From the NCBI GenBank assembly GCA_963799395.1, contig CAWCWZ010000051.1, positions 6,595 to 70,594 on the forward strand: a stretch of 64,000 nucleotides of DNA. The letters are read 5' to 3'. A program made the position numbers and the translations under genes. Every line of letters begins with the position of its first letter. The stretch's first letter is position 1. Under the pieces are notes generated by a model. That model worked only from the letters and a program-made list of their open reading frames with translations, made no database searches and had not been told where the DNA came from. Shown here piece after piece: positions 9,561 to 32,301 of the stretch. Source of the DNA: an uncultured Actinomycetes bacterium (lineage in GTDB: Bacteria; Actinomycetota; Thermoleophilia; UBA2241).

Positions 9561-9738
9561 GTGCCGAGCAGCCGGTCGGTGAACAGGCGCCGGGAGCGGC
9601 GCGGACGGGCCGGCCGCGCCGGCCCGTCCGCGCCGCTCGCCGGCGCGAGCAGCCAAGCCGGCGCCTCGTCGCCCGGACGGAGTGGGTCGCCGGCCGCAGG
9701 CGCGTGCGGCATCGGGCACGAGGCGACTCACTGTGCGG

Positions 9739-10806: not shown

Positions 10807-10808
10807 GT

Positions 10809-11287: not shown

Positions 11288-11305
11288 GGTGCGACCGTAT
11301 CGCAG

Positions 11306-11322
11306 TCGCAAGCGAGTTGCAA
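11306..11322 (-). promoter_or_regulatory. Nur-box-like operator TCGCAA-N5-TTGCAA
   Basis: Plus strand reads TCGCAAGCGAGTTGCAAG. This matches the Streptomyces Nur-box tTGCaa-N5-ttGCAA with one mismatch. It lies 19-35 nt upstream of the preferred regulator start, at the head of the nik operon. Confidence 0.4.
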
Positions 11323-11448
11323 GTGCCATGTTGTTGCCGCTCCGGCCGCCGACCGCGACATGCGGCCACCGCAGAGTCGAACGGGCGCACCGGCGTCGAT
11401 CCGACCCTCTGGGGAATAGTGTCCGAAGCACACCGAGAGAGGGTAGCC

Positions 11449-11727
11449 ATGGTAGCCGCACACGCCAATCTGCTGGACGAAGTGCTGCATGCGATGACGC
11501 AGCTTGACCCCATGGTCTATTTCATGATCGTCGTCGTGACCATCGCCTTCGGGATAACGGCCATGGTGCTGGTCGAGCTCTTTCCCGGGCGTCCCGGCAC
11601 AGAGGCCCAGACGCCACCGGCCGAGGCCGACGAGAACGACCGCGAAGGTGCAAAGACCACGACCGTCGCAGCCGACAGAGCCCGCGCGGCTCTGAGACCT
11701 ACTTCGCCGGCAGGGCGGCGTTGATCG
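11449..11727 (+). CDS. hypothetical small membrane protein
   Basis: MVAAHANLLDEVLHAMTQLDPMVYFMIVVVTIAFGITAMVLVELFPG... with a strong RBS (GAGAGAGGGtagccATG). It is divergent from the Nur-like gene. Coding status is uncertain in high-GC DNA. Confidence 0.35.
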
Positions 11728-16953: not shown

Positions 16954-18469
16954 TCACCTACAGACCGACGATCGCGTCGAGGCGCGCCATGTCGAGGTGA
17001 GCTTCGACGTGGTCGGCGAGACGCTCGATGTCGGATGGGCCGGCGCCGCCAGTGCCCGGTGCGCGTCGGGCAGGCCGGCCGCGGCCCGCAGCCGCCCGAG
17101 GAACGCCTCCCTGAATTCGGCGGCGTCGAACAGGCCGTGCAGATAGGTGCCGCAGACCAGCCCGTCGGCGGAGACGGCGCCGTCGGCGTGGGTAGCCTCA
17201 GCGCTCGCCGCCACGTCCATGAGCGCGGCGACGCCGGGCGCCAGGGTTGTGGCACCCATGTGGATCTCGTACCCGTGCAGCGGCGTGCCCGCGGCCACAA
17301 GGGCCGAGCCGCTCGCTTCGCCGCTCACCCGCACCGTGCGCTTCGCTGCCCGGAACGTCGTGTCGACGTCGAGCAGGCCCAGGCCCGCCACCTCGGCGGC
17401 GGCCGATTCGACCCCCACGGGGTCGAGGATGCGGCGGCCCAGCATCTGGTAGCCGCCGCAGATGCCGATCACCGGTGTGCCGGCGGCGGCGGCCTGCGCG
17501 AGCGCGGCCGCGAGGCCGCGCTCGCGCAACCAGGCCAGGTCGGCCACCGTGCTCTTCGTGCCCGGCACGATGACGGCGGCGGCGGCCTGCAGGCCCTCCG
17601 GGGTGGTGACGAACTCGACGTCGACGTCGGGGTCGTCGGCGAGGGCATCGAAGTCGGTGTAGTTGCTGATGAAGGGCAGGCGTACGACGGCGATCCGCAG
17701 CGGCGCGCCCGGACGTCGGCGCCGCTCGTCGTCGATCGCCAGCGAGTCCTCCTCGTCGCCGCGCCAGTCGTTCAGGAAGGGCACGACGCCGAGGGTGGGC
17801 ACGCCGGTGCGCTCCTCGAGAAAGGCGAGTCCCGGGTCGAGCAGCGCCGCGTCGCCGCGGAACTTGTTGACGACAAAGCCGCGCACCAGCGCCTGCTCGG
17901 CCGGCGTGAAGAGCTCCATGTGACCGACCAGCGAGGCGAAGACGCCGCCCCGGTCGATGTCGCCGACCAGCAGCACCGGCGCCCGGGTGTGCAACGCCAC
18001 TCGCATATTGACGATGTCGCGGTCGCGCAGGTTGATCTCGGCCGGAACTGCCGGCGCCCTCGACCACCACGAGGTCGCTGGCCGCGCGCAGCCGGCCGAG
18101 CGCAGCCGTGACGACCGGCCAGACCTCCGCCTGGTAGGCGTGGTACCCGGCGACCGTCATGTCGTCGACCGGCCGGCCCATCACGACCACCTGACAGGCG
18201 CGCTCACTCGACGGCTTGAGCAGCACCGGGTTCATGTCGAGGTGGGGTTCCAGCCCGGCCGCGCCCGCCTGGTACACCTGGGCGCGGCCCATCTCGCCAC
18301 CGTCGGACGTGACGAACGAGTTGAGCGCCATGTTCTGCGCCTTGAAGGGCGCCACGCGCAGGCCGCGACGCGCGTAGATGCGGCAGAGGGCCGCGACCAG
18401 CACCGTCTTGCCGGCATGCGAGCCGGTGCCCTGGAGCATGACGATGCGGCCCGGCGGCGCGGTGCTCAT
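16954..18469 (-). CDS. cobQ: cobyric acid synthase; apparent frameshift near 18060
   Basis: N-terminal part (MSTAPPGRIVMLQGTGSHAGKTVLVAALCRIYARRGLRVAPFKAQNMALNS...VVVEGAGS) is in the frame of ORF 17198..19021. C-terminal GATase part (VLLVGDIDRGGVFAS...GICGGYQMLG...GYEIHMG) is in the frame of ORF 16954..18006. Confidence 0.85.
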
Positions 18470-18543: not shown

Positions 18544-19797
18544 TCAGGCCGCCGCGCCGTCGCCGGATACGGCCGACGCCAGTCTCGTCCGTAGCCGCCG
18601 CACGTCTCTCAACGTGAGGACCCACAACGAGGCGGCCAATCCGAGCCCGGCCGACAGCCAGCACGTGGTCGTCAGGCCGATCGCCGCGGTGACCGGCCCC
18701 GCCAGTGCCAGCCCGACCGGCCACAGGGCCAGCGAGCACATCCAGTCCCAGGCGCTGACGCGCGCGAGCGCCTCGTTGGGAATCTCGAGCTGTAGGGTCG
18801 TCGTCCAGAGCACCGAGTTCACCCCTACGGCCACGCCACGGAAGGCTTGCACGACGGTCAGCGCCACGAAATGTCCGCCGAGGGCCAGCACCAGCGGCGA
18901 GGCCGCGGCCGTCGCCCCGAGCAGCGCGCAGGCGACCATGGGACGTGCGAAACGAAGAAACGGCGCGCTTGCGCCGCCTACGAGGATGCCGCCGCTGAAG
19001 ACCGCGAGCACGATGCCCCAATGGGCCGCGCCGTGAGGGTGACCGTTCAGAACCAGCGGGCCGAGCACCTGGAACGGTGCCGAGACGATGAACAGCAGCA
19101 AGGCGGTGCGCAGGAGCATGGCCGCAAGCCAGGGCCGGTCCCGTACCTCTCGCCAGCCGTCGCGAAGCTCCCCGAGAAACGAGCCGACCTGCCGGACGCG
19201 CTCGGCCGGCACGACGCGCAACGTGGCGAGGAACCCGGCGCTGACCAGGAAGGTCGCGGCGTCGATGGCGACGGCACCACCCGGGCCGATGAAGGCGATC
19301 AGGGCGCCCGCCACGGCGGGGCCGACCATCAGGCCGATCCCGTAGGCAAAACCCAGCACGGCGTTGGCCGCCTGCACGTCGCGCTCCTCGACGAGTTGCG
19401 GCGTGAGGGCGCCGGCGGCGGGGACGAAGAAGGCCTGAGCGGCGCCGTAGGCGGCGAGAAGGACCACGAGCTCCCAGATGCGCGCGGTGTGCGTCAGCAG
19501 GAGAAGGGCAAGGATGGCCTGCGAACAGGCGCGCACGCAGTCTGAGACGAGCATCACGCGCTCGCGGCGCAGGCGGTCGCCCCAGACCCCGGCGACCAGG
19601 GTCAGCGCGACCAGCGGCGTGATCTGGGCGGCCAGGACAATGCCCAAGTCGGTCGCCGAGCCCGACATCCGCAGGACCGCGAAGGTGACGGCGACCGGGG
19701 TCAGGCCGTCACCGAAGGCCGAGATCGCCTGCCCCAGGAACAGATTGCGGAAGTTACGGACGCGCAGGACGTTCCAGCGCCGGATGAATCCCGTCAT
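18544..19797 (-). CDS. MFS transporter
   Basis: Intact 417-aa 12-TM protein (RNFRNLFLGQAISAFGDGLTPVAVTFAVL...). It sits between cobQ and the CbiR-like gene. Confidence 0.85.
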   Translation of the reverse strand: MTGFIRRWNVLRVRNFRNLFLGQAISAFGDGLTPVAVTFAVLRMSGSATDLGIVLAAQITPLVALTLVAGVWGDRLRRERVMLVSDCVRACSQAILALLLLTHTARIWELVVLLAAYGAAQAFFVPAAGALTPQLVEERDVQAANAVLGFAYGIGLMVGPAVAGALIAFIGPGGAVAIDAATFLVSAGFLATLRVVPAERVRQVGSFLGELRDGWREVRDRPWLAAMLLRTALLLFIVSAPFQVLGPLVLNGHPHGAAHWGIVLAVFSGGILVGGASAPFLRFARPMVACALLGATAAASPLVLALGGHFVALTVVQAFRGVAVGVNSVLWTTTLQLEIPNEALARVSAWDWMCSLALWPVGLALAGPVTAAIGLTTTCWLSAGLGLAASLWVLTLRDVRRLRTRLASAVSGDGAAA

Positions 19798-19869: not shown

Positions 19870-20733
19870 TCAGCCGGCCGGGATCAGCCGCTCGCGCCGC
19901 AGGTACGCAACGCTCGCCGACAGGCCTTCGGGCGTGAGCACCTCGATGATGGTGCTGACCCCGGACCGCCGAGCCGCCGCCAACACCGCGCCCGCGTCCA
20001 CCACGCCGCAGCCCAGGGCCAGGTGAGAGTCAACGCCGGTCGCGCCGTCCACCGGCCCCGCGTTGTCGTGCAGGTGCACGTGGCGGAGCTGCGCCTGCGG
20101 ATCGCGCAGGAACTCCGCGAGCGCCTCGCAAGCCGCGGCGTGCCCCGTGTCGAGCGCCAGGCCGAGCGCGCCAAGGTCGAGGTCGCCGGGGCGCGCGAAA
20201 TGGCTGTGGTCGGCACCCATCAGGTTCTCGAGCGCCACCTCCACGCCGTACTCGTCCTGAAGGGCCGCCAGCTCGACGATGCTCCGCTGGAGCGCATCGC
20301 GAACGGCGCCGCTGCGCACGATGGGTGTGAGGTCGTAGTCGGGGTGCAGCACGTAGACGGCGGCGCCGACATCTGCGGCCGCCTCGAGGTGGCGGCGGTG
20401 CACGGCGACCGCGGCCTTGCGGGCCGCCTCGGACGGGTGCCCCACGTCGGCGTTCTCCCAGGGGCCGTGCACGGTCAGCCGCAGGCCGCTCTGCACGACG
20501 GCCCGCCGGTTGGCCGCCCTGATCAGACTGTGGTTGTAGTCGCTGTAGACCTCGGCGAGCTCGGCGACGGATGCGATGTGGGCCAGAGCGGCCGCCAGCG
20601 GCTGGTCGAACCAGGCCGTGGCGGCGAGGCCGATGTCGGGGGGCAGGAGCACGCGGCGGCCTACCTCCGACTCACCTGGACGGCACCCGGGTCCTGGCCG
20701 AGCCTGCACCTCAGAAGGGGTACGTCTTGCCAC
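19870..20733 (-). CDS. sugar phosphate isomerase/epimerase (xylose isomerase-like TIM barrel, AP endonuclease 2 superfamily); possible CbiR-like cobamide-remodeling enzyme
   Basis: Intact 287-aa ORF with TIM-barrel metal-ligand pattern (VHGPWE...VLHPDY...ALENL...HVHLHDN). The CbiR suggestion rests on context (cobQ, DUF4430, corrinoid uptake genes) and on fold family only. Confidence 0.6.
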   Translation of the reverse strand: MARRTPSEVQARPGPGCRPGESEVGRRVLLPPDIGLAATAWFDQPLAAALAHIASVAELAEVYSDYNHSLIRAANRRAVVQSGLRLTVHGPWENADVGHPSEAARKAAVAVHRRHLEAAADVGAAVYVLHPDYDLTPIVRSGAVRDALQRSIVELAALQDEYGVEVALENLMGADHSHFARPGDLDLGALGLALDTGHAAACEALAEFLRDPQAQLRHVHLHDNAGPVDGATGVDSHLALGCGVVDAGAVLAAARRSGVSTIIEVLTPEGLSASVAYLRRERLIPAG

Positions 20734-22054
20734 TGAGCGCGACCACGACCTCCGACGTGGTCAGAAGCGGCATGGCAAGAGTCGTGCCGTAGTGGTAGAA
20801 GGCACCGGAGCTCGCCTGCAGCGAGAGCAGAAAGCTGATCGGCGTCTTGCCGCCCTTCTTCCACGCTCCACCGGCGGGGTTCTGCCCGACGGCGCGGATC
20901 GCCTGGACGGCCCATGCGGTCGACTCGGCGTTGGTCGTGCCGCCCATCCCGGAGGTAAAGCCCCCGTTGCTCATCTGCTGGCTGTGCAGATAGGAGAGGG
21001 CGCGCTCGATCGCGGTGTTCGAGGCGGAGATCCCGCCTGACCTCAGCGCCTCGACGGCCGCGGCCGTGTCATCGGGGTCCGGCGCCCCGCCGGGGGTGAA
21101 GGAGAACCCACCGTTCGACGCCTGCTGGCTGGTAAGCCAGGAAACCGACTTCGTGAGCTGCGAAGAGCTCTGCCCCGCCGCCCTGAGAGCGATCACCGCC
21201 CAGGTGGTGGTGGAGACGGCGGCGTAGGTGTCGCTCCCCCCCGGCGTCGTGGAGAAGACTCCGCTCTGGCTGTTCTCGTAGGCGAGGAGATGAGCCACGA
21301 GATCGATGTGTCCGCTGCCCGCCGTGCTTATCAGCGACGAGACCCCGGCGGCGTCATATGTGATGATCATCTTGGCGTAGAAGTTGGCGGGGTTGCTGGC
21401 CGTCCCGGAGCCGCCCGTGGCCACCTCGGTGATGTCCAGCGACTGCAGGTAGGCGATCGGGCCCTTACCCCCCGAGCGCCTGAACGTCGAGGGACTCTTG
21501 CCGGTAGCCGCGATAGCCTGAACCACCCAGGGCGTCGTGGTCGTCGTCTGCCCAGACGCGCCAAACCCTCCCGAGGTCAGCTGATTGGCGCGAAAATAGG
21601 AGACGGCCTTGCCGACCGAGCTGCGCACCTGCGAAGCCAGCGATGAGGAGCTGGAGGTCTTGGTCTTGGTCGGCTTGGGCTTCGGGGTGGACTTCTGGCT
21701 CGATGACTGCAGCGTTGAGGCCGCCGAACGGGGGGCCGACGGGGCCTGCACCGTACCGGCACCGGACTTGGCCGCCGGTTTCGTTGCCGCCGACTTCGTT
21801 GCCGCCGGCGTCGGCCCCGAAGCCGCCGACGCGGTCGCGCCCGGCGAAGGCGCCGCAGCATCCGCGAGGCTCGAGATCGCTGCCGCCGATGACGCGACCG
21901 GCGAAGAGGCCGCGGACGGCGACCCACCGCCCGACGACGACGAGCCCCTCCCGTTGACCAAGACAAAGACGCCGATCGCCACCACAAAGCCAACCACGAT
22001 GATCGCCGCGATGCTGCGCTGGACCGCTGCCATGTGTCGCGGACCACTGTTCAC
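20711..22054 (-). CDS. membrane-anchored prenyltransferase/squalene-cyclase-like alpha/alpha-toroid repeat protein
   Basis: N-terminal TM (IAAIIVVGFVVAIGVFVLV). A Ser/Ala/Pro/Thr-rich linker is followed by at least four QxxxGGF repeats (NQLTSGGFGA...PWVVQAIAATG; QQASNGGFSF...DTAAAVEALRS; QQMSNGGFTS...TAWAVQAIRAVG; LQASSGAFYH). Intact 447 aa. Confidence 0.7.
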   Translation of the reverse strand: MNSGPRHMAAVQRSIAAIIVVGFVVAIGVFVLVNGRGSSSSGGGSPSAASSPVASSAAAISSLADAAAPSPGATASAASGPTPAATKSAATKPAAKSGAGTVQAPSAPRSAASTLQSSSQKSTPKPKPTKTKTSSSSSLASQVRSSVGKAVSYFRANQLTSGGFGASGQTTTTTPWVVQAIAATGKSPSTFRRSGGKGPIAYLQSLDITEVATGGSGTASNPANFYAKMIITYDAAGVSSLISTAGSGHIDLVAHLLAYENSQSGVFSTTPGGSDTYAAVSTTTWAVIALRAAGQSSSQLTKSVSWLTSQQASNGGFSFTPGGAPDPDDTAAAVEALRSGGISASNTAIERALSYLHSQQMSNGGFTSGMGGTTNAESTAWAVQAIRAVGQNPAGGAWKKGGKTPISFLLSLQASSGAFYHYGTTLAMPLLTTSEVVVALSGKTYPF

Positions 22055-22250: not shown

Positions 22251-23309
22251 CTACTTCCCCTTGGGGATGACGATGGTCTGGACGGTCGTGCGGCCCCAGC
22301 CGTCCATGGCGGTGACCTTGACCCTGATGGACGTGGTCTTGGGCGCCGCGGGGCTCAGATGCAGCGTCAGCGTCTGCGCGCCGGCGGCTCGTGCCCCACT
22401 CCACTTCGCGAGGACCTTGGAGCCCTTGGTGACGGCGATGGTGACGGCCGAGCGTTCGCTCAGCTTGAAGTGCACCTTGACCGTCTTGGCGTTTGTGCGC
22501 CCTGCCGCAAGCGCGCCGAGAGCGGGCTTGGCGCCCACGTTGAGCAACACCGTCGCGGAGGGTGCGTAGACATCGGTGTCCATGGCCTTCTCAGACCAGA
22601 CGGCATACGTGCCCGACGCCAGGTCCTTGACCGCGAGCGTGGAGGCGGCACCCCCGTAGACCTGGCTGCCCACGTGAACGGTGGCGCCGTCGATGGCCGG
22701 GAACTGCGCCGGAGTCTGGATGTCGGTGGTCGAGAAGCGCGTTGCGTCGGCCTGGCTGTGGACATCGGCGAGGTTCGCCCCGACGGTGCTCACGGTGACG
22801 GTCTGACCGGGCGTAAAGCCATGCTTTGCCGTGCCCCCCGTGACTCTGGTCACAAGCAGGAACGCCGGCTTGCTGAACGTGGCGTCGGGGTTCTGGAACC
22901 ACAGGTAGCTGTCGCCGGCGACCGTCTGCAGGCTGCCCGCGCCGACAGGCGAAGCGTAGCCATTGACGGCGATCTCCCACCAATTGCTGTCGTCGCCGGC
23001 CATCGCGAGTCCGTCGATCGAGTTGACATACGGACCGGAGCCGCTGACGCTCATGTCCCAGGGCAGGCCACCCAACTGCAAGGCGGCCGCGGTGGCTCCC
23101 AGAGCGGTAGCGTTCGTCGTGGTGAATGAGGTGCCGTCGGTATCCACGATCTTGCCGCCGGCGGCGCTCTCGCTGACCGTCGTCCTGGGCAGCACCTGGA
23201 ATGTGGCCCCTTGCACACGCACGCTGCTCGACACGGCCAGCGCGGCAGGCGCGGCCACGAGAGCGATGGTCGCCACGGCGACCAGCACCAGAATGATCCT
23301 CTGCTTCAT
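22251..23309 (-). CDS. secreted DUF4430 (transcobalamin beta-domain-like) protein with C-terminal Ig-like region
   Basis: Signal peptide MKQRIILVLVAVATIALVAAPAALA. DUF4430-type core: VRVQGATFQVL...PYVNSIDGLAMAGDDSNWWEIAVNGYASPVGAGSLQTVAGDSYLWFQ. Intact; ORF-track N-terminal extension discounted. Confidence 0.7.
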   Translation of the reverse strand: MKQRIILVLVAVATIALVAAPAALAVSSSVRVQGATFQVLPRTTVSESAAGGKIVDTDGTSFTTTNATALGATAAALQLGGLPWDMSVSGSGPYVNSIDGLAMAGDDSNWWEIAVNGYASPVGAGSLQTVAGDSYLWFQNPDATFSKPAFLLVTRVTGGTAKHGFTPGQTVTVSTVGANLADVHSQADATRFSTTDIQTPAQFPAIDGATVHVGSQVYGGAASTLAVKDLASGTYAVWSEKAMDTDVYAPSATVLLNVGAKPALGALAAGRTNAKTVKVHFKLSERSAVTIAVTKGSKVLAKWSGARAAGAQTLTLHLSPAAPKTTSIRVKVTAMDGWGRTTVQTIVIPKGK

Positions 23310-23537
23310 GTGAGCTCCTTTCGTGAAACGGACCCCTGAGTCTACGTCGAACACAACTGCGGTCGTCGAACTGATACTGCGTATCATATACTGCAGTGGT
23401 CTAGTGTTGGCTAGAGCAAGCATGCCGACGTAGCTGTGAGGGTCCCCACACGTGACCGTGGAGAGTCAGCTGGGTCGCGCCGAACCTCGGCGGTGGGCCT
23501 TGAGACGGCTGACGTTGACACCTTCGACGGTGCCACT

Positions 23538-24503
23538 GTGACGCGCATCGCGTTTGCGCACAGATCGTCTGCGACCTCGCGGCCGCACATCACAGCCGCG
23601 ATCGTCGTGCTCGTGCTCCTGCTGGCCGTCGGAGTCGCGGGCTGTGCCGGAGTGCGGGGCAAGTGCACACCAGCGGCCAAGGGGCACGTGCCCGGCGCCG
23701 GCGAGGTGCGACTCATCGTCTCGGAGCACTTCGGCACCACCGTCATGCTCGACGAAGTCGTGCCCTGGAAACAGGAGCTCAACGTGATGACCCTTCTGGC
23801 CGCACACGCTCGCGTCGACACCGAGTACGGTGGCGGGTTCGTGAGCGCCATCAACGGTGTCAAGTCGACCTTTGGCGGCGTCTCGTCGACGCAGGCCGCC
23901 GACTGGTTCTACTGGGTCGACGGGATCATGGCCGGTGTCGGGGCCGCCGACTACCGGCTTCACGGCGGCGAGACCGTCTGGTGGGACTTCCATCAGTGGG
24001 TCGACGCGATGTCGATCCCGGCGACGCTCTCCGCCTTCCCAGCGCCGTGGAAGGGCCGTCCCCTGGAAGTCGCCACCAACGAGGCGTGGCCTGGGCTTCA
24101 GCAGTGGACGCAGGCGTCGGGGTTGACCCTGGGCCAGACGAGCTCCCTGGCCACAGGCGCTCCCGCCGGCGGCCTCATCGTCGCGACACCGCAGGAGGTC
24201 ACCACCACGAGGTGGCTCAGCCAGCTTCTCGACAGTGGCGACGGCGTGCAGATGGTAAATCTGAAGGGAGGAGGGATCTCGCTGCTCTCACCCGCTGGTG
24301 CTCAGGGACCTCCTGCGGACGCGGTCGCTTTGGCTCTGCCCGATACCAACAACGGCAACCGCCCCTTCTTGGTCGTGCTGGCCGATTCGACCTCAGCTGC
24401 GCAGCGCATGTTCATACTCCTCACGCCCAACGCCCTCGCGGGCCACGTGGCTGTGGCGTTGGTCAACGGCTCCCTTGTCACGCTGCCCTGGCACGCCCAG
24501 TGA
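23538..24503 (+). CDS. DUF4430 (transcobalamin beta-domain-like) lipoprotein
   Basis: Lipobox LLLAVGVAGC. DUF4430 core: GEVRLIVSEHFGTTVMLDEVVPW...GGGFVSAINGVKSTFGG...DWFYWVDGIMAGVGAADYRLHGGETVWWDFHQW. GTG start ~23538 (track ORF starts earlier at 23436). Confidence 0.7.
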   Translation: MTRIAFAHRSSATSRPHITAAIVVLVLLLAVGVAGCAGVRGKCTPAAKGHVPGAGEVRLIVSEHFGTTVMLDEVVPWKQELNVMTLLAAHARVDTEYGGGFVSAINGVKSTFGGVSSTQAADWFYWVDGIMAGVGAADYRLHGGETVWWDFHQWVDAMSIPATLSAFPAPWKGRPLEVATNEAWPGLQQWTQASGLTLGQTSSLATGAPAGGLIVATPQEVTTTRWLSQLLDSGDGVQMVNLKGGGISLLSPAGAQGPPADAVALALPDTNNGNRPFLVVLADSTSAAQRMFILLTPNALAGHVAVALVNGSLVTLPWHAQ

Positions 24504-25509
24504 ACGCGCCAGCCGCGAACGATCTCAGCAAGCCGCCGGCCACTGCCGCCTCGTCTGGGAGTCGCGTGCCGGCCTTCCGCGTGGCGCCGGCGATGCCGAG
24601 ACCGACCTCCAAGCGGCGACTCGAGCCGCGTCGCCGCGGCCTTGCGCGCCGCCAGCCCGTCGCCATCGTCGCCTACGTGGGCGCGCTCACCCTCGCCGCC
24701 CTGGTGCTCGTCAATCCCCTGCAGGTCACGGCGCTACTGGCGCTCTGCCTCGTCGTCCTGGTCGCCGCCGGGCGCGGCCGGGCGGCCTGGCCCTATCTCA
24801 AGACGGCTCTCTACATCGGTGGTTTCCTGGCCATCGTCAACCCGCTGATCAGCCGCAGCGGCAGCACCGTGCTCTGGCAGCTCCAGCTTGGCCCCTTCGA
24901 CGTGCCGATCACCATCCAGGGAATCGCCTACGGTGTGACGACGGCGCTGCGCATCATCGCCGTGATCACGGCCTTCGCCCTCTTCTCCTCGTCCTCGACC
25001 CCGACGACCAGCTCGGCCTCATGAGCCGGCTGTCGTTTCGCACCGGTCTTGTGATCTCGTTGGCCTCCCGGCTCTTGCCGGTGTTCTCGCGCGACGCGGC
25101 GCGCATCTCCAATGCCCAGCGCGCTCGCGGGGTAGAGCTCGACGCCGGCCGTCGACGCGCCCGCGTCGCGGCGCGCGTACCTTTGCTGGCCGCGCTCCTC
25201 GCTCAGAGCCTCGAGCGGGCCGTCGACGTCGCCGCCTCCATGGAGGCACGCGGCTTCGGCGCCCGCGACCGTTCGCACTGGTCGCACGGGCGGCGCTGGA
25301 GAACTGCCGACCTGGTCACCACGGCGGCGGCTCTGCTTGGCGCGGCGGCGCTGCTCGGGGGCCTCTTCGCCGGGGCCTTCTCGTACAACTTCTATCCCTT
25401 GCTGGACGACCCCTGGAGCCAGCTCGCCGGCATCTGGTGGCTGCTCGCCTTCGCGGCGCTCATCGTTCCCGCACTCTGGACCCTGCCGTGGCGACGCTCG
25501 CGCGACTGA
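24500..25509 (+). CDS. ecfT: ECF transporter T component (EcfT/CbrU-like); apparent frameshift near 24990
   Basis: First segment ALYIGGFLAIVNPLISRSGSTVLWQLQLGPFDVPITIQGIAYGVTTALRIIAVITAFALFS is in the frame of ORF 23663..25024. Second segment RLSFRTGLVISLASRLLPVFSRDAARISNAQRARGVEL... is in the frame of ORF 24298..25509. GTG start overlaps the upstream TGA (GTGA). Confidence 0.75.
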
Positions 25510-27161
25510 CCGACGTCACCTACTGGTACCCCGGACGCGAGAGGCCGGCTCTCCGCGACGTCTCGCTACGGATCGGTCCAGCCGAGGTGATCCTCGTGGT
25601 CGGCTCCTCGGGCAGCGGCAAGTCGACCTTGTTGCGCTGCCTGAACGGTCTCGTGCCGCACTTCCACGGCGGCACCCTCGCCGGGCACGTGGAGGTCGAC
25701 GGCAGGGACACGCGCACGTCACACACACACGAGCTGGCCCATGCCGTCGGTCTCGTCTTCCAGGATCCCGAGAGCCAGTCGGTGATGACCACAGTCGAGC
25801 GTGAGATCGCCTTTGGCCTCGAGAACAGGGGGGTGCCGAGCGCTGCGATCAGCCGCCTCGTCGAAGAGGCGCTTATTCTCCTCAGCCTGTCGCACCTGCG
25901 ACACGCCTCGCTCTCGACACTTTCGGGTGGAGAGCTGCAGAAGGTCGCTCTGGCCGCGGTCGTGGCCACCCAGCCGCAACTGCTGCTCCTGGACGAGCCG
26001 ACTTCGCAGCTCGACCCCGTGAGCTCCGAGGAGCTGCTCGCCGCCATCAGGCGACTCGCGGAGGACACGGGCTCGACCATCATCCTCGCCGAGCATCGCA
26101 CGGAGCGCTGCCTGCACCTGGTCACCCGCGTGCTATATATGGATGACGGCGTTCTGGCAGAAGACGCCGATCCGCAGGACTTCGCGGACTGGGCGCTGGA
26201 CGGACACCGCGGCTTGCTGCCGCCGGTCGCTCGCCTCTTCGCCCGCAGGACCAGCGACCGCTCGGCCGGCGCCGGCGACCCGGATCTGCCGATGACGGTC
26301 AAGGACGCTCGCCGTTTGCTTGTGACCCACGAAGACCCGCAGCCGCGTCGCAGCCCGGCCACGTCATGGAAACCCTCCGGCGGCATCGTCCTCGAAGCGC
26401 GCAAGCTGGCGATCGGCTACGACCCCGACGAGCCGCTGCTCGAGGGCTTGAGCTTCGGTCTGGCGCGCGGCGAGGCAGTGGCCCTCATGGGCGAGAACGG
26501 CGTGGGCAAGTCGACGCTGATCCGTCACTTCATCGGCTTGGCGCGGCCGCTGGCCGGCAAGGTCGTGCTGCTCGACCGCGACGTCTCCGAGATCACCGTG
26601 GCGGCGGCGGCACGTGACTGCGCCCTCATGGGTCAGAACCCGAACGACCTGTTCGTGAAGGACACTGTGGCCGAGGAGATCGCCTTCACGCTCGACGCAC
26701 TGGGTATCACCGGCGAGCGGCACGACTCCCTGACGGCCAAGATCGTCGCCGAGCTTGATCTGGAAGCTCTCCTGCAGCGGAACCCACGCGACCTGTCGGG
26801 CGGCGAGCGCACGCGGGTCGCGCTCGCCGCCACCGTCTGCGGAGACCCCACCATGGTCGTGCTCGACGAGCCCACGAGAGGCATGGACGCACGGCACAAG
26901 GCCGAGCTTGCCGCGACGATACGCCGCTGGGTCAGTGCGGGCCGCTGCGTCGTGCTCGTCACGCACGACGTGGAGTTCGCGGCGAGCGTCGTCGAGCGGG
27001 TGATCGTGCTCGGCGACCGCGGCCTGCTGGCCGACGGGCCCGTGGCCGACGTGCTCGACGGGTCGCTGTTCTTCTCGACGCAGATCAACCGTCTGTTCCG
27101 CCGCGTGCTTCCCGGCATCCTGCGCGAGGACGAGATCCAATGGGGAGAGGGAGCCTCGTGA
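25488..27161 (+). CDS. ecfA: fused duplicated ECF transporter ATPase (EcfA-EcfA', CbrV-like)
   Basis: Intact 574-aa ORF with two complete ABC cassettes (GSSGSGKSTLL / LSGGELQKVALA / LLLLDEP and GENGVGKSTLI / LSGGERTRVALA / MVVLDEP). Confidence 0.9.
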   Translation: MATLARLTDVTYWYPGRERPALRDVSLRIGPAEVILVVGSSGSGKSTLLRCLNGLVPHFHGGTLAGHVEVDGRDTRTSHTHELAHAVGLVFQDPESQSVMTTVEREIAFGLENRGVPSAAISRLVEEALILLSLSHLRHASLSTLSGGELQKVALAAVVATQPQLLLLDEPTSQLDPVSSEELLAAIRRLAEDTGSTIILAEHRTERCLHLVTRVLYMDDGVLAEDADPQDFADWALDGHRGLLPPVARLFARRTSDRSAGAGDPDLPMTVKDARRLLVTHEDPQPRRSPATSWKPSGGIVLEARKLAIGYDPDEPLLEGLSFGLARGEAVALMGENGVGKSTLIRHFIGLARPLAGKVVLLDRDVSEITVAAAARDCALMGQNPNDLFVKDTVAEEIAFTLDALGITGERHDSLTAKIVAELDLEALLQRNPRDLSGGERTRVALAATVCGDPTMVVLDEPTRGMDARHKAELAATIRRWVSAGRCVVLVTHDVEFAASVVERVIVLGDRGLLADGPVADVLDGSLFFSTQINRLFRRVLPGILREDEIQWGEGAS

Positions 27162-27961
27162 GCCCGCAAGAGCCCAAGGCTCTGCCTGGTCGCCTGCGGC
27201 GCGATCTCGTCGCCTGGCTGCTGCTGGCCGTTCTCGGTGTCGTCGCGCTGGTGGCGGCAGGCTATGCCGTCCTCGACCCCGGCGCCGTCAACTGGGGCTT
27301 CCTCAGTCTCGTACTCATCGCCGCCGTCGTCGGCTTCGCACTGGTCGCCTATGGCCTGCGCGATTCGAGCGCCAGCGAGCTGTCGCTGATCGCCGCCCTG
27401 GCGGCCCTGGCCACGGCCGGTCGTGTGCTCTTCGCCTCACTGCCCAACTTCAAGCCGGTGACCTTCATCGTTCTCGTCTCCGGCGTCGCTCTGGGGCCGG
27501 CTCCGGGCTTCATGGTGGGCGCGACGACGGCCGTGGTCTCCAACCTGTTCTTCGGTCAGGGGCCGTGGACGCCCTGGCAGATGCTCGCCTGGGGACTGGT
27601 CGGCGTAGTGGGCGGGCTCATGGGCATCAAGGGCAGGCGGCCCCGGCGCTGGGAGCTGGTGCTGGTCGGAGCGGCGCTGTCCGTCGGCTTCGACTGGTTC
27701 GTGACCCTCTGGATGTATCTCTCCTACACTCCGCACACCTGGCCCGCGCTCGTCGCGCTCTACGGCCAGGGCCTGCCTTTCGACGTGTCGCACCTGAGCG
27801 CCACGGCCATACTGGCGGCGCTGTTCGGTCCCCGGGCGATCGCCATCATCGCGCGTTTCCGCGCCCGGACGAGCGTGAGGTTCCTGCCGGCGTCACCAGC
27901 GCGCCGTGCACTGCCCAGCCTTGACGGTCCGCAGCGATTCGACAATGCTTCTCAGCCATGA
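27140..27961 (+). CDS. ECF transporter substrate-specific (S) component (CbrT-like candidate)
   Basis: Intact 273-aa protein with 6 predicted TMs. Overlaps the ecfA stop. Family assignment within S-components is not possible by eye. Confidence 0.65.
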   Translation: MGRGSLVSPQEPKALPGRLRRDLVAWLLLAVLGVVALVAAGYAVLDPGAVNWGFLSLVLIAAVVGFALVAYGLRDSSASELSLIAALAALATAGRVLFASLPNFKPVTFIVLVSGVALGPAPGFMVGATTAVVSNLFFGQGPWTPWQMLAWGLVGVVGGLMGIKGRRPRRWELVLVGAALSVGFDWFVTLWMYLSYTPHTWPALVALYGQGLPFDVSHLSATAILAALFGPRAIAIIARFRARTSVRFLPASPARRALPSLDGPQRFDNASQP

Positions 27962-28414
27962 AGGTCCAAAACCCACACCAGTCCTCGATCGACGAGGTCT
28001 TCGCCGCCCGCGGCATCCCGCTCACACGGCAGCGCCGCGCCATCTGGCAGTACTTCGCGTCGGCCGGCCGGGCGAGCACCGTCCCGGAGGCCGCGGAGGC
28101 TCTCCGCACGCAGGGCATCGGCCAGGCGACCGTCTACCGTGCGGTCGGCTTGCTCGACGGAGCTTGGCCTGCTGCTCAGCGTCCACGTCGGCGAAGGGCG
28201 CCCCTGTTATGCGGCGCCACCGGTCGGTCACAGTCATCCGCTCATCTGTGGAGTCTGCCGCAGGATCGTCGATTTCGACGGTGATGGGGACCTCCGCTAC
28301 CTCGAGAAACAGCTCGAGACCACGACGGGGTTTGCCATCTACGGCCATCATCTGGAGGTCTACGGCATCTGCCCTGACTGCAGACGAGAGCAACGCGAGG
28401 CCATGCCCTCCTAG
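27958..28414 (+). CDS. Fur-family transcriptional regulator (Zur/PerR-like); apparent frameshift near 28150
   Basis: N-terminal part MKVQNPHQSSIDEVFAARGIPLTRQRRAIWQYFASAGRASTVPEAAEALRTQGIGQATVYRAVGLLD is in ORF 27958..28284. C-terminal part VGHSHPLICGVCRRIVDFDG...YGHHLEVYGICPDCR is in ORF 28139..28414. ATG overlaps the S-component TGA (ATGA). Confidence 0.7.
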
Positions 28415-28559
28415 CCGCTGTGCCAGAACGCCGGCTCCTTCTCGATCGAGCCGCGGCCGGCCTGCGTGTTCTCGATCACGGTTCATCTCGCGACGCGATC
28501 CGGTGAGCGCGCCGCAGAGCCGGGCCTAGAGTCGCTGAGGCTTCAGGATCGGGCGGGCG

Positions 28560-28757
28560 CTACGCCTTCACGGCGACCAGCGAGACACCGAGCGTGTCCT
28601 CGAGCTCCTTGATCTTGGCGACCTGGCCGCCGTCGATGGCAGCCGGCTCCGCCGCATGGCAGGCGAAGGCGAGCACTGGGACCCCCAGGTCCTTCTCAAG
28701 CGCCCCGATCTTCTCCAGCTGCTGCTGGTCGAGCTTGGTCGCAAGGCTGCACAGCAT
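28560..28757 (-). CDS. small hypothetical protein
   Basis: MLCSLATKLDQQQLEKIGALEKDLGVPVLAFACHAAEPAAIDGGQVAKIKELEDTLGVSLVAVKA. Non-biased composition. Lies downstream of the HTH gene in the cobO transcript direction. Confidence 0.35.
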   Translation of the reverse strand: MLCSLATKLDQQQLEKIGALEKDLGVPVLAFACHAAEPAAIDGGQVAKIKELEDTLGVSLVAVKA

Positions 28758-28931
28758 GGTCGTGGCTCGTTTCGGCGATGGCAACCGATCGTCGGCCACC
28801 TTCCCGCCTGGACCGCAAAGTAAGCGCGGTGACGCGACCAAACGCCGGCACTTGCATCCGACGCCGCCGCGCCCAGCGATCTACCGCAAGCGATATCCGG
28901 TGCGCGGGCCGGTCAGCCGCTCGCGGGCGGG

Positions 28932-29438
28932 TCATTGTCGCGCGATGGCCCCGCCATGGGCGCGCGTCGCCAGGCCCTCGAGATCGAGATGATCGAGGTC
29001 CCTGCGGATGGTCATCTGCGACACGCCGAGCAACGCGCTCAAAGACGAGACGCGCACGGCCCGCCGCTCGTCGAGTAGCGCGATGATGTGTGCGCGGCGC
29101 TCGGCGGCAAGAGTTTGCGGCGCCCTGCCCGCCTGTTGGTGCGACCCCACCGGCCGCTGCTCAGGGGGTTCGTCACGCGAGCACCGGTCTACGGCGGCAA
29201 ACACTTCGGGCCCACCCGCCCGCAACGCCACGATATCGGCCAGCGGGACGCGCCAGTGACCGGCGGACGTCTGGAAGGCGTCCGGCAGCAGGCCACTCTC
29301 GAGGGCCGCCCGCATGACGCCGGGATGCACGGCAAGTATGCGAGCGGCGTCTCGTAGCGAGCGCAATCCGGCCTCGTGCTCGATGACGTTGGCGATCTCC
29401 GCTCCCTCGGTAGCGTTCACCCAGCGATGCGGCATCAT
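28932..29438 (-). CDS. DNA-binding protein with excisionase-type HTH (HTH_17-like) plus C-terminal DeoR-type HTH
   Basis: LRSLRDAARILAVHPGVMRAALESGLLPDAFQTSAGHWRVPLADIVALRAG followed by HIIALLDERRAVRVSSLSALLGVSQMTIRRDLDHLDLEGLATRAHGGA. Start taken at MMPHRW. Confidence 0.55.
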   Translation of the reverse strand: MMPHRWVNATEGAEIANVIEHEAGLRSLRDAARILAVHPGVMRAALESGLLPDAFQTSAGHWRVPLADIVALRAGGPEVFAAVDRCSRDEPPEQRPVGSHQQAGRAPQTLAAERRAHIIALLDERRAVRVSSLSALLGVSQMTIRRDLDHLDLEGLATRAHGGAIARQ

Positions 29439-29478
29439 TCCCTCCTTTTCTGGCAACGGCCACGGCTCCTTGCGCGCA

Positions 29479-30075
29479 CTAGAACTCGATCCCGGCGCGT
29501 GCCTGCACACCGCGTTGGTAGTAGTGCTTGACCTCATGCATCTCGGTGACCAGGTCGGCCCGTTCGATCAAGGCCGGTGGCGCGTAGCGGCCGGTGATCA
29601 CGAGCTCGACTGCCGGCGGCCGCGCTTCAACCAACTCGAGGCAATCGCGCGCCGAGAGCAGGCCGAACCAGACCGCGACGTCGAGCTCGTCGAGCACGAC
29701 GAGGTCGTTCTCGCCTGAGATAAGCGCGGCGGCGGCGCGGGCGTGGCCCTCGAAGGCGTGCCGGCGGTGCACCGTGGTGACCTCGTCGCGATGGATGCAC
29801 CCGGGATCGCCGAACTGCTCGACGGTGATCAGCGGGTTGTCGCGCAACGCGGCAATCTCGCCGTAGGAGCTGGCCTTCATGAACTGACCGACCCAGACCC
29901 GCTTACCATGACCGGCGGCCCGCAGGACCAGGCCGAAGGCGGCCGTAGTCTTGCCCTTGCCCTCACCGGTGTAGATGTGCACGTAGCCGCGGCCTGTCGC
30001 AGCTCGAGCGCCAAACTCAGCGCTCCCAGACGTTCGGTCGAGCTTCGCAGACAGCGTATGCGCGGTCGTGGGCAT
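29479..30075 (-). CDS. cobO: cob(I)yrinic acid a,c-diamide / cob(I)alamin adenosyltransferase
   Basis: MPTTAHTL...GRGYVHIYTGEGKGKTTAAFGLVLRAAGHGKRVWVGQFMK...VVLDELDVAVWFGLL...ELVITGRYAPPALIERADLVTEMHEVKHYYQRGVQARAGIEF. RBS AAGGAGA precedes ATG 30075. ORF-track N-terminal extension discounted. Confidence 0.9.
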   Translation of the reverse strand: MPTTAHTLSAKLDRTSGSAEFGARAATGRGYVHIYTGEGKGKTTAAFGLVLRAAGHGKRVWVGQFMKASSYGEIAALRDNPLITVEQFGDPGCIHRDEVTTVHRRHAFEGHARAAAALISGENDLVVLDELDVAVWFGLLSARDCLELVEARPPAVELVITGRYAPPALIERADLVTEMHEVKHYYQRGVQARAGIEF

Positions 30076-30159
30076 GGCTTCTCCTTTGTGGCGATGGAGT
30101 CCGTGGACGATGCGAGGAATGCGCGGCACGAGGAATGGCTCTGGGGGAGTGGGCGGAGG

Positions 30160-30200
30160 AGAGTCGCAACAACACGGTGAGCCGGCCTGATCGGCCGGGA
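30160..30200 (-). terminator. putative riboswitch expression-platform hairpin (attenuator) in cobO leader
   Basis: Minus-strand CCGGCCgatcaGGCCGG stem-loop followed by CUCACCGUGUUGUUG. It lies between the B12 box and the cobO RBS. Confidence 0.35.
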
Positions 30201-30269
30201 CCGAAGTGTTTCTCGAGCGCCGATGTGAAGGCACGCCGGTCCTCCCGCGAGGTTCGCCGTCAGCGTCTC

Positions 30270-30425
30270 CTCGGGGCCCGTCTCCTGGCTTGCCGCCTGA
30301 AAGCCTACTGGTCGCGCCTTCCCGTCTCTCTCTTGAGAGACAGTGGCATGCCGGCGACGTTCGTCAGCGGTCACAGTTGCGGGGCAGCACCGGTCTTGCA
30401 CCGGTTTCCGTGTGCCTCCGAGGCA
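30270..30425 (-). ncRNA. cobalamin (AdoCbl) riboswitch
   Basis: Minus-strand sequence reads GGTGcaagaccGGTGCTGCCCCGCAACTGTGAccgc...GCCACTG...GGGAAGGC...AGGCggcaAGCCAGGAGACGGGCC. It contains the conserved CCCGCAACUGU, GCCACUG and GGGAAGGC elements and a near-consensus B12 box (AGCCAGGAGACGGGCC). It lies upstream of cobO. Confidence 0.85.
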
Positions 30426-30495
30426 GTTACTTGAGAAACATTATCAAATGGCTCTCGCGTCGGTCAAGCGCCGGGCGGGCAGTTTGGCGCCGGGT

Positions 30496-32301
30496 ATGCT
30501 TCACCTACGGATGAAGACCTTCTGGCGCATCACCAAGCTGCTCGGCGACTACCCGTGGCTCGTCTTCGTCGGTTTCAGCACGGCGCTGCTGCAGACGGCC
30601 GCGTCGCTCGCCATCCCCTGGCTCACCCGCGGGGTCATCAACAAGGCGCTCGTGCCCGGCAAGACGAGCCTGCTGATCTGGTACGGCCTGGCGATGCTCG
30701 GGATCGGCGTCCTGCGCTTCGGCTTCGCCGTCGCCCGCCGTCTGTCGACCGGCAAGGTCAGCCTCGCCATCGAGTACGACCTGCGTAACCGCATGTGGGG
30801 TCATCTGCTGCGCCAACCGTTCACCTACTTCGACCGCTGGCCCACCGGGCAGCTCATGTCGCGGGCCATGGCCGACATCCAGAACGTGCGCATGTTCCTG
30901 GGCTACGGCCTCATCTTCTTCACCACCAACATCTTCACGATGGTCGCGGTCACCGTGCTGATGTTCTTTCTGGACTGGCAGCTCGCCCTGCTCAGCCTGG
31001 CGTTCCTGCCACTCCTGCTGCTCGTCACCGTGCGCTTCAGCCGCCGCCTGCAGCCGATCCTGCGCGACGTCCAGCAGAAGATCGCCGACGTCACCGCGAC
31101 GGCTGAAGAGAACGTGACCGGCTCGCGGATCGTACGCATCTTCGCCCGCGAAGACGACGAGCTCGCCAAGTTCTCCGACCGCAGCACGAGGGTGTTCGAG
31201 GCCGAGGTGAGCGCCGCCCGTATCCGCGCCTTCTACGTGCCGCTGATCGGCTTTCTGCCCAATCTCGCGGTCGTCGTGCTGCTCTACGGGGGCGGCCGCG
31301 CGGTCATCGACGGCAGCCTCAGCCTGGGCTCGCTCGTGGCTTTCTACAGCTACCTGATGATGCTCATCTACCCGGCCCAGGTGATCGGCTGGCTCACCGG
31401 CCTCGCCCAGCGCGCCATCGCCTCGGGGCATCGCGTGTACGAGATCCTCGACGCGCCGATCGAGATGCTCGAGCGCCCCGACGCGACCCCCGTGCCGAGC
31501 ATCCGCGGCGAGGTGCGCTTCGAGAACGTGTCGTTCTCGTACGTCGACCGGCCGGTGCTCGAGAACGTCGACCTCAAGGTGCCGGCCGGCCACACGATCG
31601 CCCTCGTGGGCCACACCGGCTGCGGCAAGACGACCCTGACCAACCTGGTGCCGCGCTTCTACGATACCGGCGACGGCCGCATCCTGATCGACGGCCTCGA
31701 CGTGCGCGAGGCCCGCCTCGCCGATCTGCGCAGCCACATCGGCGTCGTCACCCAGGACCCGTTCCTGTTCTCGACGACCGTCGCCGACAACATCCGCTTC
31801 GGTCGCCCCGAGGCAAGCGACGAGCAGGTGCGTGAGGCGGCCGAGCGCGCCCAGGCCGCGTCGTTCATCGAGGCCTTGCCCGACGGCTACGAGACGGTCG
31901 TCGGCGAGCGCGGCCTCTCCCTGTCGGGCGGCCAGCGCCAGCGCATCGCCATCGCTCGCGCGCTCGTCGTCGATCCCCGGATCCTCATCCTCGACGACGC
32001 CACCTCGAGCGTCGACGCCGAGACGGAGTTCAAGATCAGGCGCGCACTGGTCGAGGTCATGAAGGGCCGCACGACCTTCATCATCGCCCACCGGCCGTCG
32101 ACCATCTCGCTGGCCGAGGAGATCGTGGTGATGGACAAGGGACGCGTCGTCGAGCGCGGCGTCCACGCCGAGCTGATCGCCGGCGACACCCTCTACCGGC
32201 GCATGTTCGGCGCCGCGGAGCTCGAAGGCACGACACTCGATGCGGCCGACGGCTTCGCCGGCGATGGGCGCGGCGCGCGGCGCCGGGGCAAGGTGGGCTG
32301 A
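30496..32301 (+). CDS. ABC transporter ATP-binding/permease protein (type I exporter half-transporter)
   Basis: Intact. Six-TM domain plus NBD (GHTGCGKTTL, LSGGQRQRIAIARAL, ILILDDATSSVD). Start chosen at MLHLRMKTFW; the track ORF starts earlier at 30343. Confidence 0.85.
   Translation: MLHLRMKTFWRITKLLGDYPWLVFVGFSTALLQTAASLAIPWLTRGVINKALVPGKTSLLIWYGLAMLGIGVLRFGFAVARRLSTGKVSLAIEYDLRNRMWGHLLRQPFTYFDRWPTGQLMSRAMADIQNVRMFLGYGLIFFTTNIFTMVAVTVLMFFLDWQLALLSLAFLPLLLLVTVRFSRRLQPILRDVQQKIADVTATAEENVTGSRIVRIFAREDDELAKFSDRSTRVFEAEVSAARIRAFYVPLIGFLPNLAVVVLLYGGGRAVIDGSLSLGSLVAFYSYLMMLIYPAQVIGWLTGLAQRAIASGHRVYEILDAPIEMLERPDATPVPSIRGEVRFENVSFSYVDRPVLENVDLKVPAGHTIALVGHTGCGKTTLTNLVPRFYDTGDGRILIDGLDVREARLADLRSHIGVVTQDPFLFSTTVADNIRFGRPEASDEQVREAAERAQAASFIEALPDGYETVVGERGLSLSGGQRQRIAIARALVVDPRILILDDATSSVDAETEFKIRRALVEVMKGRTTFIIAHRPSTISLAEEIVVMDKGRVVERGVHAELIAGDTLYRRMFGAAELEGTTLDAADGFAGDGRGARRRGKVG

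Follow-up and report, generated by a model that had tools for sequence, protein, structure and literature searches.

A CbrT-type ECF transporter operon with transcobalamin-like surface proteins and a putative Fur-family repressor in an uncultured Thermoleophilia bacterium

In this study, a stretch of 64,000 nucleotides from an uncultured Actinomycetes bacterium of the Thermoleophilia (assembly GCA_963799395.1, contig CAWCWZ010000051.1; hereafter the window, G+C content ~70%) was analyzed with a focus on an operon that joins an energy-coupling factor (ECF) transporter to a Fur-family regulator gene. All coordinates are positions in the 64-kb window. The plus strand between 23538 and 28414 holds five genes, encoding a DUF4430 lipoprotein (SLBB1), the subunit EcfT, a fused EcfAA′ ATPase, an S component, and a Fur-family protein (Fur1). 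The gene order and identities had been given in a preliminary description made from the sequence letters, and the reading of the open reading frames (ORFs) together with Pfam and NCBIfam searches confirmed them. The five genes are:

23538..24503, plus strand: SLBB1 lipoprotein of 321 amino acids (aa), with a PF14478 match of 46.8 bits (cut-off 23.8) and a lipobox
24500..25509, plus strand: EcfT (CbiQ family), transmembrane coupling subunit, with PF02361 in both halves of the gene
25488..27161, plus strand: fused EcfA-EcfA′ ATPase (maximal ORF from 25437, 574 aa), with two ABC_tran domains and TIGR04520
27140..27961, plus strand: CbrT-like S component (alternative GTG start at 27158), assigned by Pfam and homology to CbrT
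27958..28414, plus strand: Fur1, Fur-family regulator, with PF01475 in both halves of the gene

At three of the four junctions, start and stop codons overlap, as had been described before. The EcfT start overlaps the lipoprotein stop in a GTGA (24500–24503), the S component start overlaps the EcfAA′ stop in another GTGA (27158–27161), and the Fur1 start overlaps the S component stop in an ATGA (27958–27961), all read directly from the sequence. Between EcfT and EcfAA′ the overlap amounts to 22 nucleotides (nt), given an EcfAA′ start at 25488. This start also modifies the earlier account of an intact 574-aa EcfAA′: the protein is fused and its ORF from 25437 to 27161 is unbroken, but residue 1 of the orthologues, which are 555–557 aa long, aligns at the GTG at 25488. 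An exact-sequence look-up with the 574-aa ORF returned no match, because gene callers use the 557-aa start. The ATGA overlap is also present in three homologous loci from other genomes (designated L with a number throughout; here L003, L088, and L091), which supports the view that translation of the Fur gene is probably coupled to that of the S component.

The transporter core was recognized by several independent models. PF02361 matched the two halves of EcfT with 34.3 and 48.4 bits (cut-off 25), the two ABC_tran domains within the single 557/574-aa EcfAA′ protein reached 196.6 bits in total, and TIGR04520 (ECF_ATPase_1) scored 343.4 bits (cut-off 315). The S component exceeded the Pfam cut-offs of DUF6580, ECF-ribofla_trS, and ECF_trnsprt; these matches are to be read with the limit that Pfam does not tell CbrT apart from the remaining S components, the CbrT sequence matching ECF_trnsprt and not DUF6580. 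In a phmmer search against all PDB chains, CbrT was the sole sequence match of the S component (6FNP_A, E = 1e-11, residues 11–174 of 182), to the exclusion of the other solved S components. Alignment of a profile of the S family (18 members) to CbrT by hhalign gave a probability of 98.1% with 28% identity over 156 columns, and the S component of the window carries an additional N-terminal extension of ~75 aa. Thereby, the proposal of a cobalamin-type, CbrT-like ECF transporter in the preliminary description was borne out: the classification suggested there as a check returned a CbrT homologue and no non-corrinoid S component from the PDB. CbrT is a proven carrier of cobalamin and cobinamide (PMC5997447). 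With T, two ECF-type ATPase domains, and S encoded in the same operon, the system has the composition of the dedicated (group I) ECF type.

The signal sequence of SLBB1 ends in the lipobox ...LLAVGVAG↓C, as read from the sequence, and an identical 321-aa protein with the same start is on record in NCBI/ENA (P0241). The AlphaFold2 (AF2) model of SLBB1 reached a predicted local distance difference test (pLDDT) value of 88. For its N-terminal domain, the top fold matches in the PDB were the beta domains of transcobalamin, intrinsic factor, and haptocorrin as well as the DUF4430 structure 3U7Z; the model matched 5NO0 with a TMt of 0.68 and a root mean square deviation of 2.6 Å, with further matches to 2V3N, 2PMV, 4KKI, and 3U7Z. 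SLBB1 thus combines the DUF4430/beta-grasp domain, the export and anchoring signal, and the CbiO/CbiQ-like gene context of transcobalamin-like SLBB proteins. The C-terminal alpha/beta domain (residues ~170–320) was modelled with confidence, and homologues conserve it. Pfam gave no match to this domain, and its fold matches were weak and BcsB-like, none of them confident; it may dock to the S component or to a toroid protein encoded in the divergent operon upstream. The genes of this operon are:

22251..23309, minus strand: SLBB2, secreted second DUF4430 protein, first gene of the divergent operon (PF14478, 29.8 bits)
20711..22054, minus strand: membrane-anchored alpha/alpha-toroid protein, transcobalamin-alpha-like, with a Ser/Ala/Pro-rich linker (Prenyltrans, 38.2 bits)
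19870..20733, minus strand: AP_endonuc_2 protein resembling the cobamide-remodelling phosphodiesterase CbiR (NF041277 as best NCBIfam match)
18544..19797, minus strand: MFS_3 transporter, with which the divergent operon probably ends (MFS_1 and MFS_3 in Pfam)

The orthologues of SLBB2 start at the position equivalent to 23309, and its signal peptide reads MKQRIILVLVAVATIALVAAPAALA. NCBIfam contains no model that matched either DUF4430 protein. For the toroid protein, the Prenyltrans match and both SQHop_cyclase matches were above the Pfam cut-offs. A second alpha/alpha-toroid paralogue is encoded elsewhere in the window (50431–51346, plus strand), with ~36% identity to the 20711–22054 protein and a change of frame at ~51075–51086, likely another single-base indel. 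L001 and L088 carry the MFS_3 gene at the equivalent place. In the nearest outgroup, L006 (GCA_040776965.1, 10001–11556), the CbiR-like gene directly follows the S gene with a 4-nt overlap and occupies the slot that the Fur gene has in the clade of the window; this would couple transport and cobamide remodelling at the level of translation in L006.

According to textbooks, ECF transporters work without extracytoplasmic binding proteins, and a lipoprotein of its own had been regarded as atypical for this operon. This part of the preliminary description did not hold. In a distribution scan with one genome per species (80 loci, cassette order determined by tblastn), the cassette SLBB–EcfT–EcfAA′–S–toroid was found in ~70 of the 80 species representatives, and therefore the extracytoplasmic binder is no oddity and is a regular part of the ECF family of this cassette. 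This conservation also places the five-gene arrangement far beyond chance. Carriers belong to the Thermoleophilia (Solirubrobacterales, Gaiellales), other Actinomycetota, and the Bacillota, while two archaeal loci (L040, L070) hold only EcfT–EcfAA′–S. The toroid gene is placed after the S gene in most relatives. In the clade of the window, the toroid and SLBB2 genes are located in the divergent operon and the Fur gene at the 3′ end of the transporter operon; in the 80 species representatives, no Fur gene occurs at the cassette. Systems of this kind were predicted as early as 2007, when Burroughs, Balaji, Iyer and Aravind reported transcobalamin-like SLBB proteins on the surface of bacteria, encoded in CbiO/CbiQ-like operons and often accompanied by a second SLBB paralogue and an alpha/alpha toroid, and proposed the scavenging of B12 or its precursors (PMC1796856). 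One of them has since been studied as lsa1836–1840 of L. sakei (bioRxiv 10.1101/864751).

Information on the substrate came from the regulation of the relatives and from neighboring genes. Of 33 distant relatives tested with Rfam, 30 have a cobalamin riboswitch upstream of the cassette and in the same orientation, the other three being L065, L031, and the archaeon L040. L049 (Bacillota) carries, besides the upstream one, a second cobalamin riboswitch directly 3′ of the S gene (8650–8832), which suggests a further B12-regulated unit after the cassette. The locus in the window also holds the CbiR-like gene, a riboswitch-led cobO gene, and a CobQ gene, and CbiZ and CobD genes adjoin it in L001. 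Because of the riboswitches in the relatives, the homology to CbrT, and the CbiR-like, CobO, and CobQ neighbors, the cargo is most likely a corrinoid (vitamin B12, cobinamide, or related cobamides). A metal chelate, which had been considered as an alternative to a corrinoid, is disfavoured by the same 30 riboswitch-led relatives and by the presence of the CbiR-like gene and the riboswitch-cobO operon at the locus, though the heme results for L. sakei leave it some probability.

To our knowledge, bacterial B12 uptake genes are almost always under riboswitch control. Upstream of the cassette, no riboswitch was found by Rfam in the window, L088, L001, L003–L005, L091/92, and L006, and a permissive Rfam search of 23150–23750 gave chance matches only and no hidden riboswitch before the operon. 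Instead, a Fur-box-like palindrome is located in the promoter region shared with the divergent operon, and a second site of this kind was found at the convergent cobO operon:

23372..23386: TGATACTGCGTATCA, a Fur-box-like palindrome in the promoter region that the divergent operons share, found by pattern search and alignment
30432..30446: TGAGAAACATTATCA, a second site of this type at the cobO promoter, overlapping its -10 hexamer
30258..30457, minus strand: cobalamin riboswitch leading the convergent cobO operon (RF00174, 82.4 bits; gathering score 31.5)
29479..30075, minus strand: CobO/BtuR ATP:corrinoid adenosyltransferase (PF02572, 200 bits; start matching the orthologues)

The promoter palindrome TGATACTGCGTATCA is the sole exact TGATA-N5-TATCA in the 64 kb, with 0.08 sites expected at up to one mismatch, and it is kept in L088, L001, L003, and L091. 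The version in L003, TGATAATGAGTATCA, is one mismatch away from a classical 7-1-7 Fur box. An inverted-repeat search of the promoter reported none, the arms of the box being only 6 nt long. The second site has two mismatches to the classical Fur box TGATAATNATTATCA and is kept in L001, L003, L088, and L091. It lies on the only sigma70-like promoter predicted in 23200–30600 (TTGACC-16-GATAAT, 30467 to 30440, minus strand), which drives the riboswitch-cobO operon. The window thus contains two Fur-box-like sites versus 0.02 expected, and as predicted 7-1-7 operators both have the form known for Fur-family proteins. The cobO operon itself (28932–30457, minus strand) comprises the riboswitch, cobO, a gene for a 167-aa DNA-binding protein of the HTH_17/DeoR type, and a small ORF of 65–93 aa. 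This layout is kept in L001, L003, L088, and L091, and by its position in a riboswitch-led operon the HTH_17/DeoR-type transcription factor would in turn be subject to control by the B12 riboswitch.

A box of the form TGA(G/T)AA-N3-TT(C/A)TCA was present directly upstream at all seven importer-linked contexts of Fur genes related to Fur1, none of which has a riboswitch; among them, it precedes the members of the Fur1 subfamily in L093–L097. Across ~1 Mb of riboswitch-bearing loci with high G+C, this box is practically missing. In L006, which lacks both a riboswitch and a Fur gene close by, boxes are nevertheless found in the corresponding promoters.

The two halves of Fur1 in the window scored 18.3 and 20.5 bits with PF01475, each under the cut-off of 23.1, because the gene is split; intact orthologues carry PF01475, and the repaired Fur1 shares 99% identity with the intact 151-aa protein P0121. 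Matches to Zur, PerR, Fur, and Nur in the PDB ranged from ~1e-13 to 1e-9, the nearest being MtZur (2O03) and BsPerR (2FE3), both at ~1e-13. In the subfamily alignment, the structural CxxC...CxxC zinc site (CGVC, CPDC) is invariant, and the HSH motif, the DFDGDGD loop, and a C-terminal GHH are retained. The signature of the subfamily reads GRA(A/S)T ... GHSHPLICGVC ... DFDGDGD ... YGHHLEVYGICPxC. An identity of Fur1 as Zur or PerR was considered and rejected in view of the equally weak similarity to several subtypes and the altered ligand set.

All eight genomic contexts examined for the Fur1 subfamily (59–99% identity to the Fur protein of the window) adjoin B12-related genes. Homologues with 59–80% identity were located at SLBB-ECF, BtuFCD-like, and CbiMNQO importers and at a cob biosynthesis cluster. 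The Fur gene is located at the 3′ end of the ECF cassette in L088 and L091/92, and just upstream of a same-strand run including DUF4430 and EcfT/CbiQ-like genes in L095. It is the first gene of a same-strand run including a BtuFCD-like ABC system in L094, L096, and L097, where the components match corrinoid BtuC/BtuD/BtuF models best, and it adjoins CbiMNQO and a Btu-like system in L093. In L098–L101 (~6001–6444), a cobalamin biosynthesis cluster ends with a cobA-hemD fusion and, 33 nt 3′ of it, a subfamily member. This cluster also includes CbiG, a TP_methylase (tetrapyrrole methylase family) gene, a CbiJ-CobO fusion, and CobQ. The runs in L094, L096, and L097 (~8001–12600) and in L093 continue from the Fur gene with a Dph6-like ATP pyrophosphatase (not in L094), Peripla_BP_2, FecCD, and an ABC ATPase with a C-terminal MJ0874 domain, and are preceded by tandem Fur-box-like sites; the transporter components of L096 have haloarchaeal corrinoid Btu models as best matches.

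The link between corrinoid uptake and a Fur-family regulator, suggested in the preliminary description from the gene order, appears strengthened by the box in the promoter and by the position of the subfamily beside B12 and cobalt genes. It is narrow in distribution, as the absence of the Fur gene from all 80 species representatives indicates. A literature search found no Fur-family regulator of cobalamin uptake, which is weak evidence of absence. The 'cobalt-sensitive Btu' system of Anabaena is riboswitch-mediated.

We consider it probable that the genes of this locus form a corrinoid importer of the dedicated group I ECF type with transcobalamin-like surface proteins, in which a Fur-family repressor and its operator have taken the place of the riboswitch. 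As judged from sequence, the transporter is of a known kind, namely that of the dedicated, CbrT-type ECF importers which take up corrinoids and have surface proteins resembling transcobalamin. By comparison, the regulatory arrangement looks new: an autoregulated Fur-family repressor seems to replace the riboswitch, and a second layer of control seems to act on cobO. In the proposed mechanism, the lipid-anchored SLBB1 would capture the corrinoid outside the membrane and would probably work with the secreted SLBB2 and the membrane-anchored toroid protein, which jointly would hand the corrinoid to the CbrT-like S component, driven by EcfT and the fused EcfAA′ ATPase. The CbiR-like phosphodiesterase would strip the lower ligand, and CobO would adenosylate the imported corrinoid. 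Fur1 would bind the 7-1-7 palindrome in the shared promoter and thereby shut off both operons and its own synthesis, and would also bind the second box, the one that overlaps the cobO -10 hexamer. As a first guess, its effector may be Co2+ or a corrinoid-related signal, because the Fur1 subfamily recurs beside cobalt, corrinoid, and B12-synthesis genes. Homologies, gene content, conservation, folds, the positions of the motifs, and the missing riboswitch are results of the analysis, and from comparative genomics we infer the ligand, the hand-over from protein to protein, the pairing of repressor and operator, and the effector.

The known classes of the Fur family are Fur, Zur, Mur, Nur, PerR, and Irr. 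Only tentatively, the Fur1 subfamily might be added as a further functional class, whose members would specifically repress genes for B12 synthesis and for the uptake of corrinoids and cobalt and would have succeeded the riboswitch in a lineage of the Thermoleophilia, with Co2+ or, as the bolder option, a directly bound corrinoid as effector. The heme-binding Fur-family proteins Irr and Har offer an analogy for direct corrinoid binding.

Several observations weigh against a corrinoid importer under its own Fur-family repressor and have to be set beside the alternative explanations. The best NCBIfam subtype for Fur1, PerR, reached 63.8 bits versus a cut-off of 180, and no subtype cut-off was reached. 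Also, Arg is found at the equivalent of PerR H37 and Ala at the equivalent of D85, so the N-terminal His and hinge Asp ligands are replaced. With altered ligands and no subtype cut-off reached, the metal of Fur1 is not readable from its sequence. The promoter box resembles the classical iron-Fur box, and thus a global iron Fur could be the binder. A second Fur-family paralogue in the window (10883–11287, minus strand), located upstream of the cobalt/nickel ECF genes CbiM(+PDGLE), CbiQ, and CbiO (whole region 7887–11287), could in principle bind the operators as well. It shares 28–31% identity with Fur1 and has the canonical HHH motif and the N-terminal His; no TGA(G/T)AA-N3-TT(C/A)TCA box is present upstream of it, and the CbiM gene of this region is possibly frameshifted near 9851–9923. 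Neither a box nor a riboswitch was found within 6 kb on either side of the Fur gene in L098–L101. As for the CbiR-like protein, NF041277 was its best-matching model with 65.1 bits and E = 6.8e-18, below the cut-off of 105, and its gene matches only loosely the context of adjacency to cobamide genes used for CbiR by Mok et al. 2020 (PMC7733943).

One alternative explanation is a metal-sparing response, in which the corrinoid importer would be controlled by an ordinary iron (or zinc) sensor in place of a dedicated cobalt or corrinoid sensor and, for example, more B12 would be supplied to B12-dependent isozymes when iron or zinc is scarce. We regard it as unlikely. An operator close to the classical box TGATAATNATTATCA, similarities of Fur1 that are spread across Zur, PerR, and Fur without a distinct class in PDB and NCBIfam, and the structural CxxC...CxxC zinc site speak for such a sensor. 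However, the eight contexts examined for the subfamily consist of B12 and cobalt genes, with no siderophore synthesis, ferritin, or znuABC-type gene among them, and the adjoining ABC systems fit corrinoid Btu models better than iron-siderophore ones. Moreover, the canonical ligands of the regulatory site are changed in Fur1, and this altered pattern is maintained across the subfamily.

Less probable still is that the cassette imports heme or another iron tetrapyrrole, with Fur1 as an iron-responsive repressor of heme-iron acquisition. CbrT is the one solved S component to which the S protein has a match, cobalamin riboswitches precede the cassette in 30 of the 33 distant relatives tested, the flanks consist of the CbiR-like gene, riboswitch-cobO, and CobQ, and neither a heme oxygenase gene nor a Dyp-type gene was seen at the locus. 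Against this stands the homologous system lsa1836–1840 of L. sakei, which has the same five components, has been interpreted as a heme importer, and was reported to raise heme uptake, its deletion lowering the heme content (bioRxiv 10.1101/864751). The Fur-box-like operator would fit such a function too, as would ECF-type heme uptake under Fur control, which is reported for S. lugdunensis (PMC7299338).

Finally, two of the five genes are interrupted in the window. EcfT is split between frames by one base missing at ~24987 and Fur1 by an extra G at 28156, as deduced from alignment to L001 and L003; these frameshift calls rest on direct alignment to L088, L001, and L003, since the frame plot of G+C at third codon positions (GC3) was too noisy. 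The L088 contig is 99.46% identical to the window across 12.9 kb, and its five genes are unbroken (336, 336, 557, 273, and 151 aa); EcfT is unbroken at 336–338 aa in L088, L003, and L091. Between the window and L088 there are 31 scattered single-base gap positions in both directions, and cobO is broken in L088 and unbroken in the window. EcfAA′ is likewise split in L001. The sequence 3′ of each shift still encodes conserved protein, the C-terminal half of EcfT being 95% identical to L003. Because the five genes are unbroken in L088, the gap positions run both ways, and L088 has a broken cobO of its own, the frameshifts in EcfT and Fur1 are most likely assembly indels and not decay, and the genes are most likely functional in the organism. 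That the two single-base shifts are real and the operon is decaying in this strain, leaving a non-functional system and a Fur coupling without present role, is on these grounds very improbable. An extra C at 18042 in the gene for a CobQ/CbiP-like amidotransferase (GATase_3 and CbiA; 16954–18450, minus strand), which encodes 350 aa in the window versus 503 aa in L088, is further evidence of assembly indels.

If the proposed importer with its Fur-family repressor holds true, the swap from riboswitch to Fur would be a natural experiment in which a protein replaced the RNA control of the same genes, and it appears across ECF, BtuFCD-like, and CbiMNQO importers. Fur1 could then reveal a Fur-family sensor with a new effector, cobalt or a corrinoid. 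In the survey, ECF importers with transcobalamin-like binders were common in soil Actinomycetota and Bacillota, which qualifies the textbook statement on binding proteins and bears on cobamide competition among soil bacteria.

Among the closest known systems is CbrTUV (or CbrUVT), which Rodionov and colleagues reportedly predicted in 2009 as a group I ECF transporter for cobalamin precursors, the assignment being made via B12 riboswitch regulons. CbrU and CbrV presumably correspond to AA′ and T. Alike are the dedicated T, the duplicated ATPase, and the CbrT-type S in one operon. As a signature of B12 uptake, CbrUVT has been listed with CbrU, CbrV, and CbrT only and no surface protein (PMC6593275, PMC8123684).

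ECF-CbrT of Lactobacillus delbrueckii (6FNP; Santos et al. 2018, PMC5997447) has a homologous S component (28% identity), an ECF-type energising module, and a B12-related neighborhood including an adenosyltransferase. It is a group II system with a general ECF module common to several S components, whereas the window encodes a dedicated T and fused AA′ in the operon, an N-terminal extension of ~75 aa on S, and additional extracytoplasmic transcobalamin-like proteins. The SLBB operons of PMC1796856 and L. sakei lsa1836–1840 share with the window the SLBB protein (often two), the toroid, the CbiQ-like T, the fused CbiO-like AA′, and the S component, and the role predicted for the former, scavenging of B12 or precursors, is the one proposed here. 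The clade of the window differs by placing the toroid and SLBB2 genes in a divergent operon with a CbiR-like gene, by lacking the riboswitch typical of the relatives, and by the Fur gene at the 3′ end; the L. sakei system differs in its reported function as a heme importer.

With Fur-family regulators such as 2O03, 2FE3, and Nur of S. coelicolor (3EYY), Fur1 shares the winged-helix and dimerisation domains, the CxxC...CxxC site, the HxH motif, an autoregulatory placement, and, as predicted, a 7-1-7 AT-rich palindromic operator. In contrast to Fur, Zur, Nur, PerR, and Irr, it stays below the subtype cut-offs, has Arg and Ala in place of the N-terminal His and the hinge Asp, and belongs to a subfamily linked to corrinoid, cobalt, and B12-synthesis genes and not to iron, zinc, or peroxide genes. 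Compared with control by the RF00174 cobalamin riboswitch, the class of target genes is the same, and the riboswitch is still found on cobO here and on the cassettes of most relatives. At the cassette of the window it is absent, and a protein repressor with its operator appears to stand in for it; cobO seems to carry both an operator and a riboswitch.

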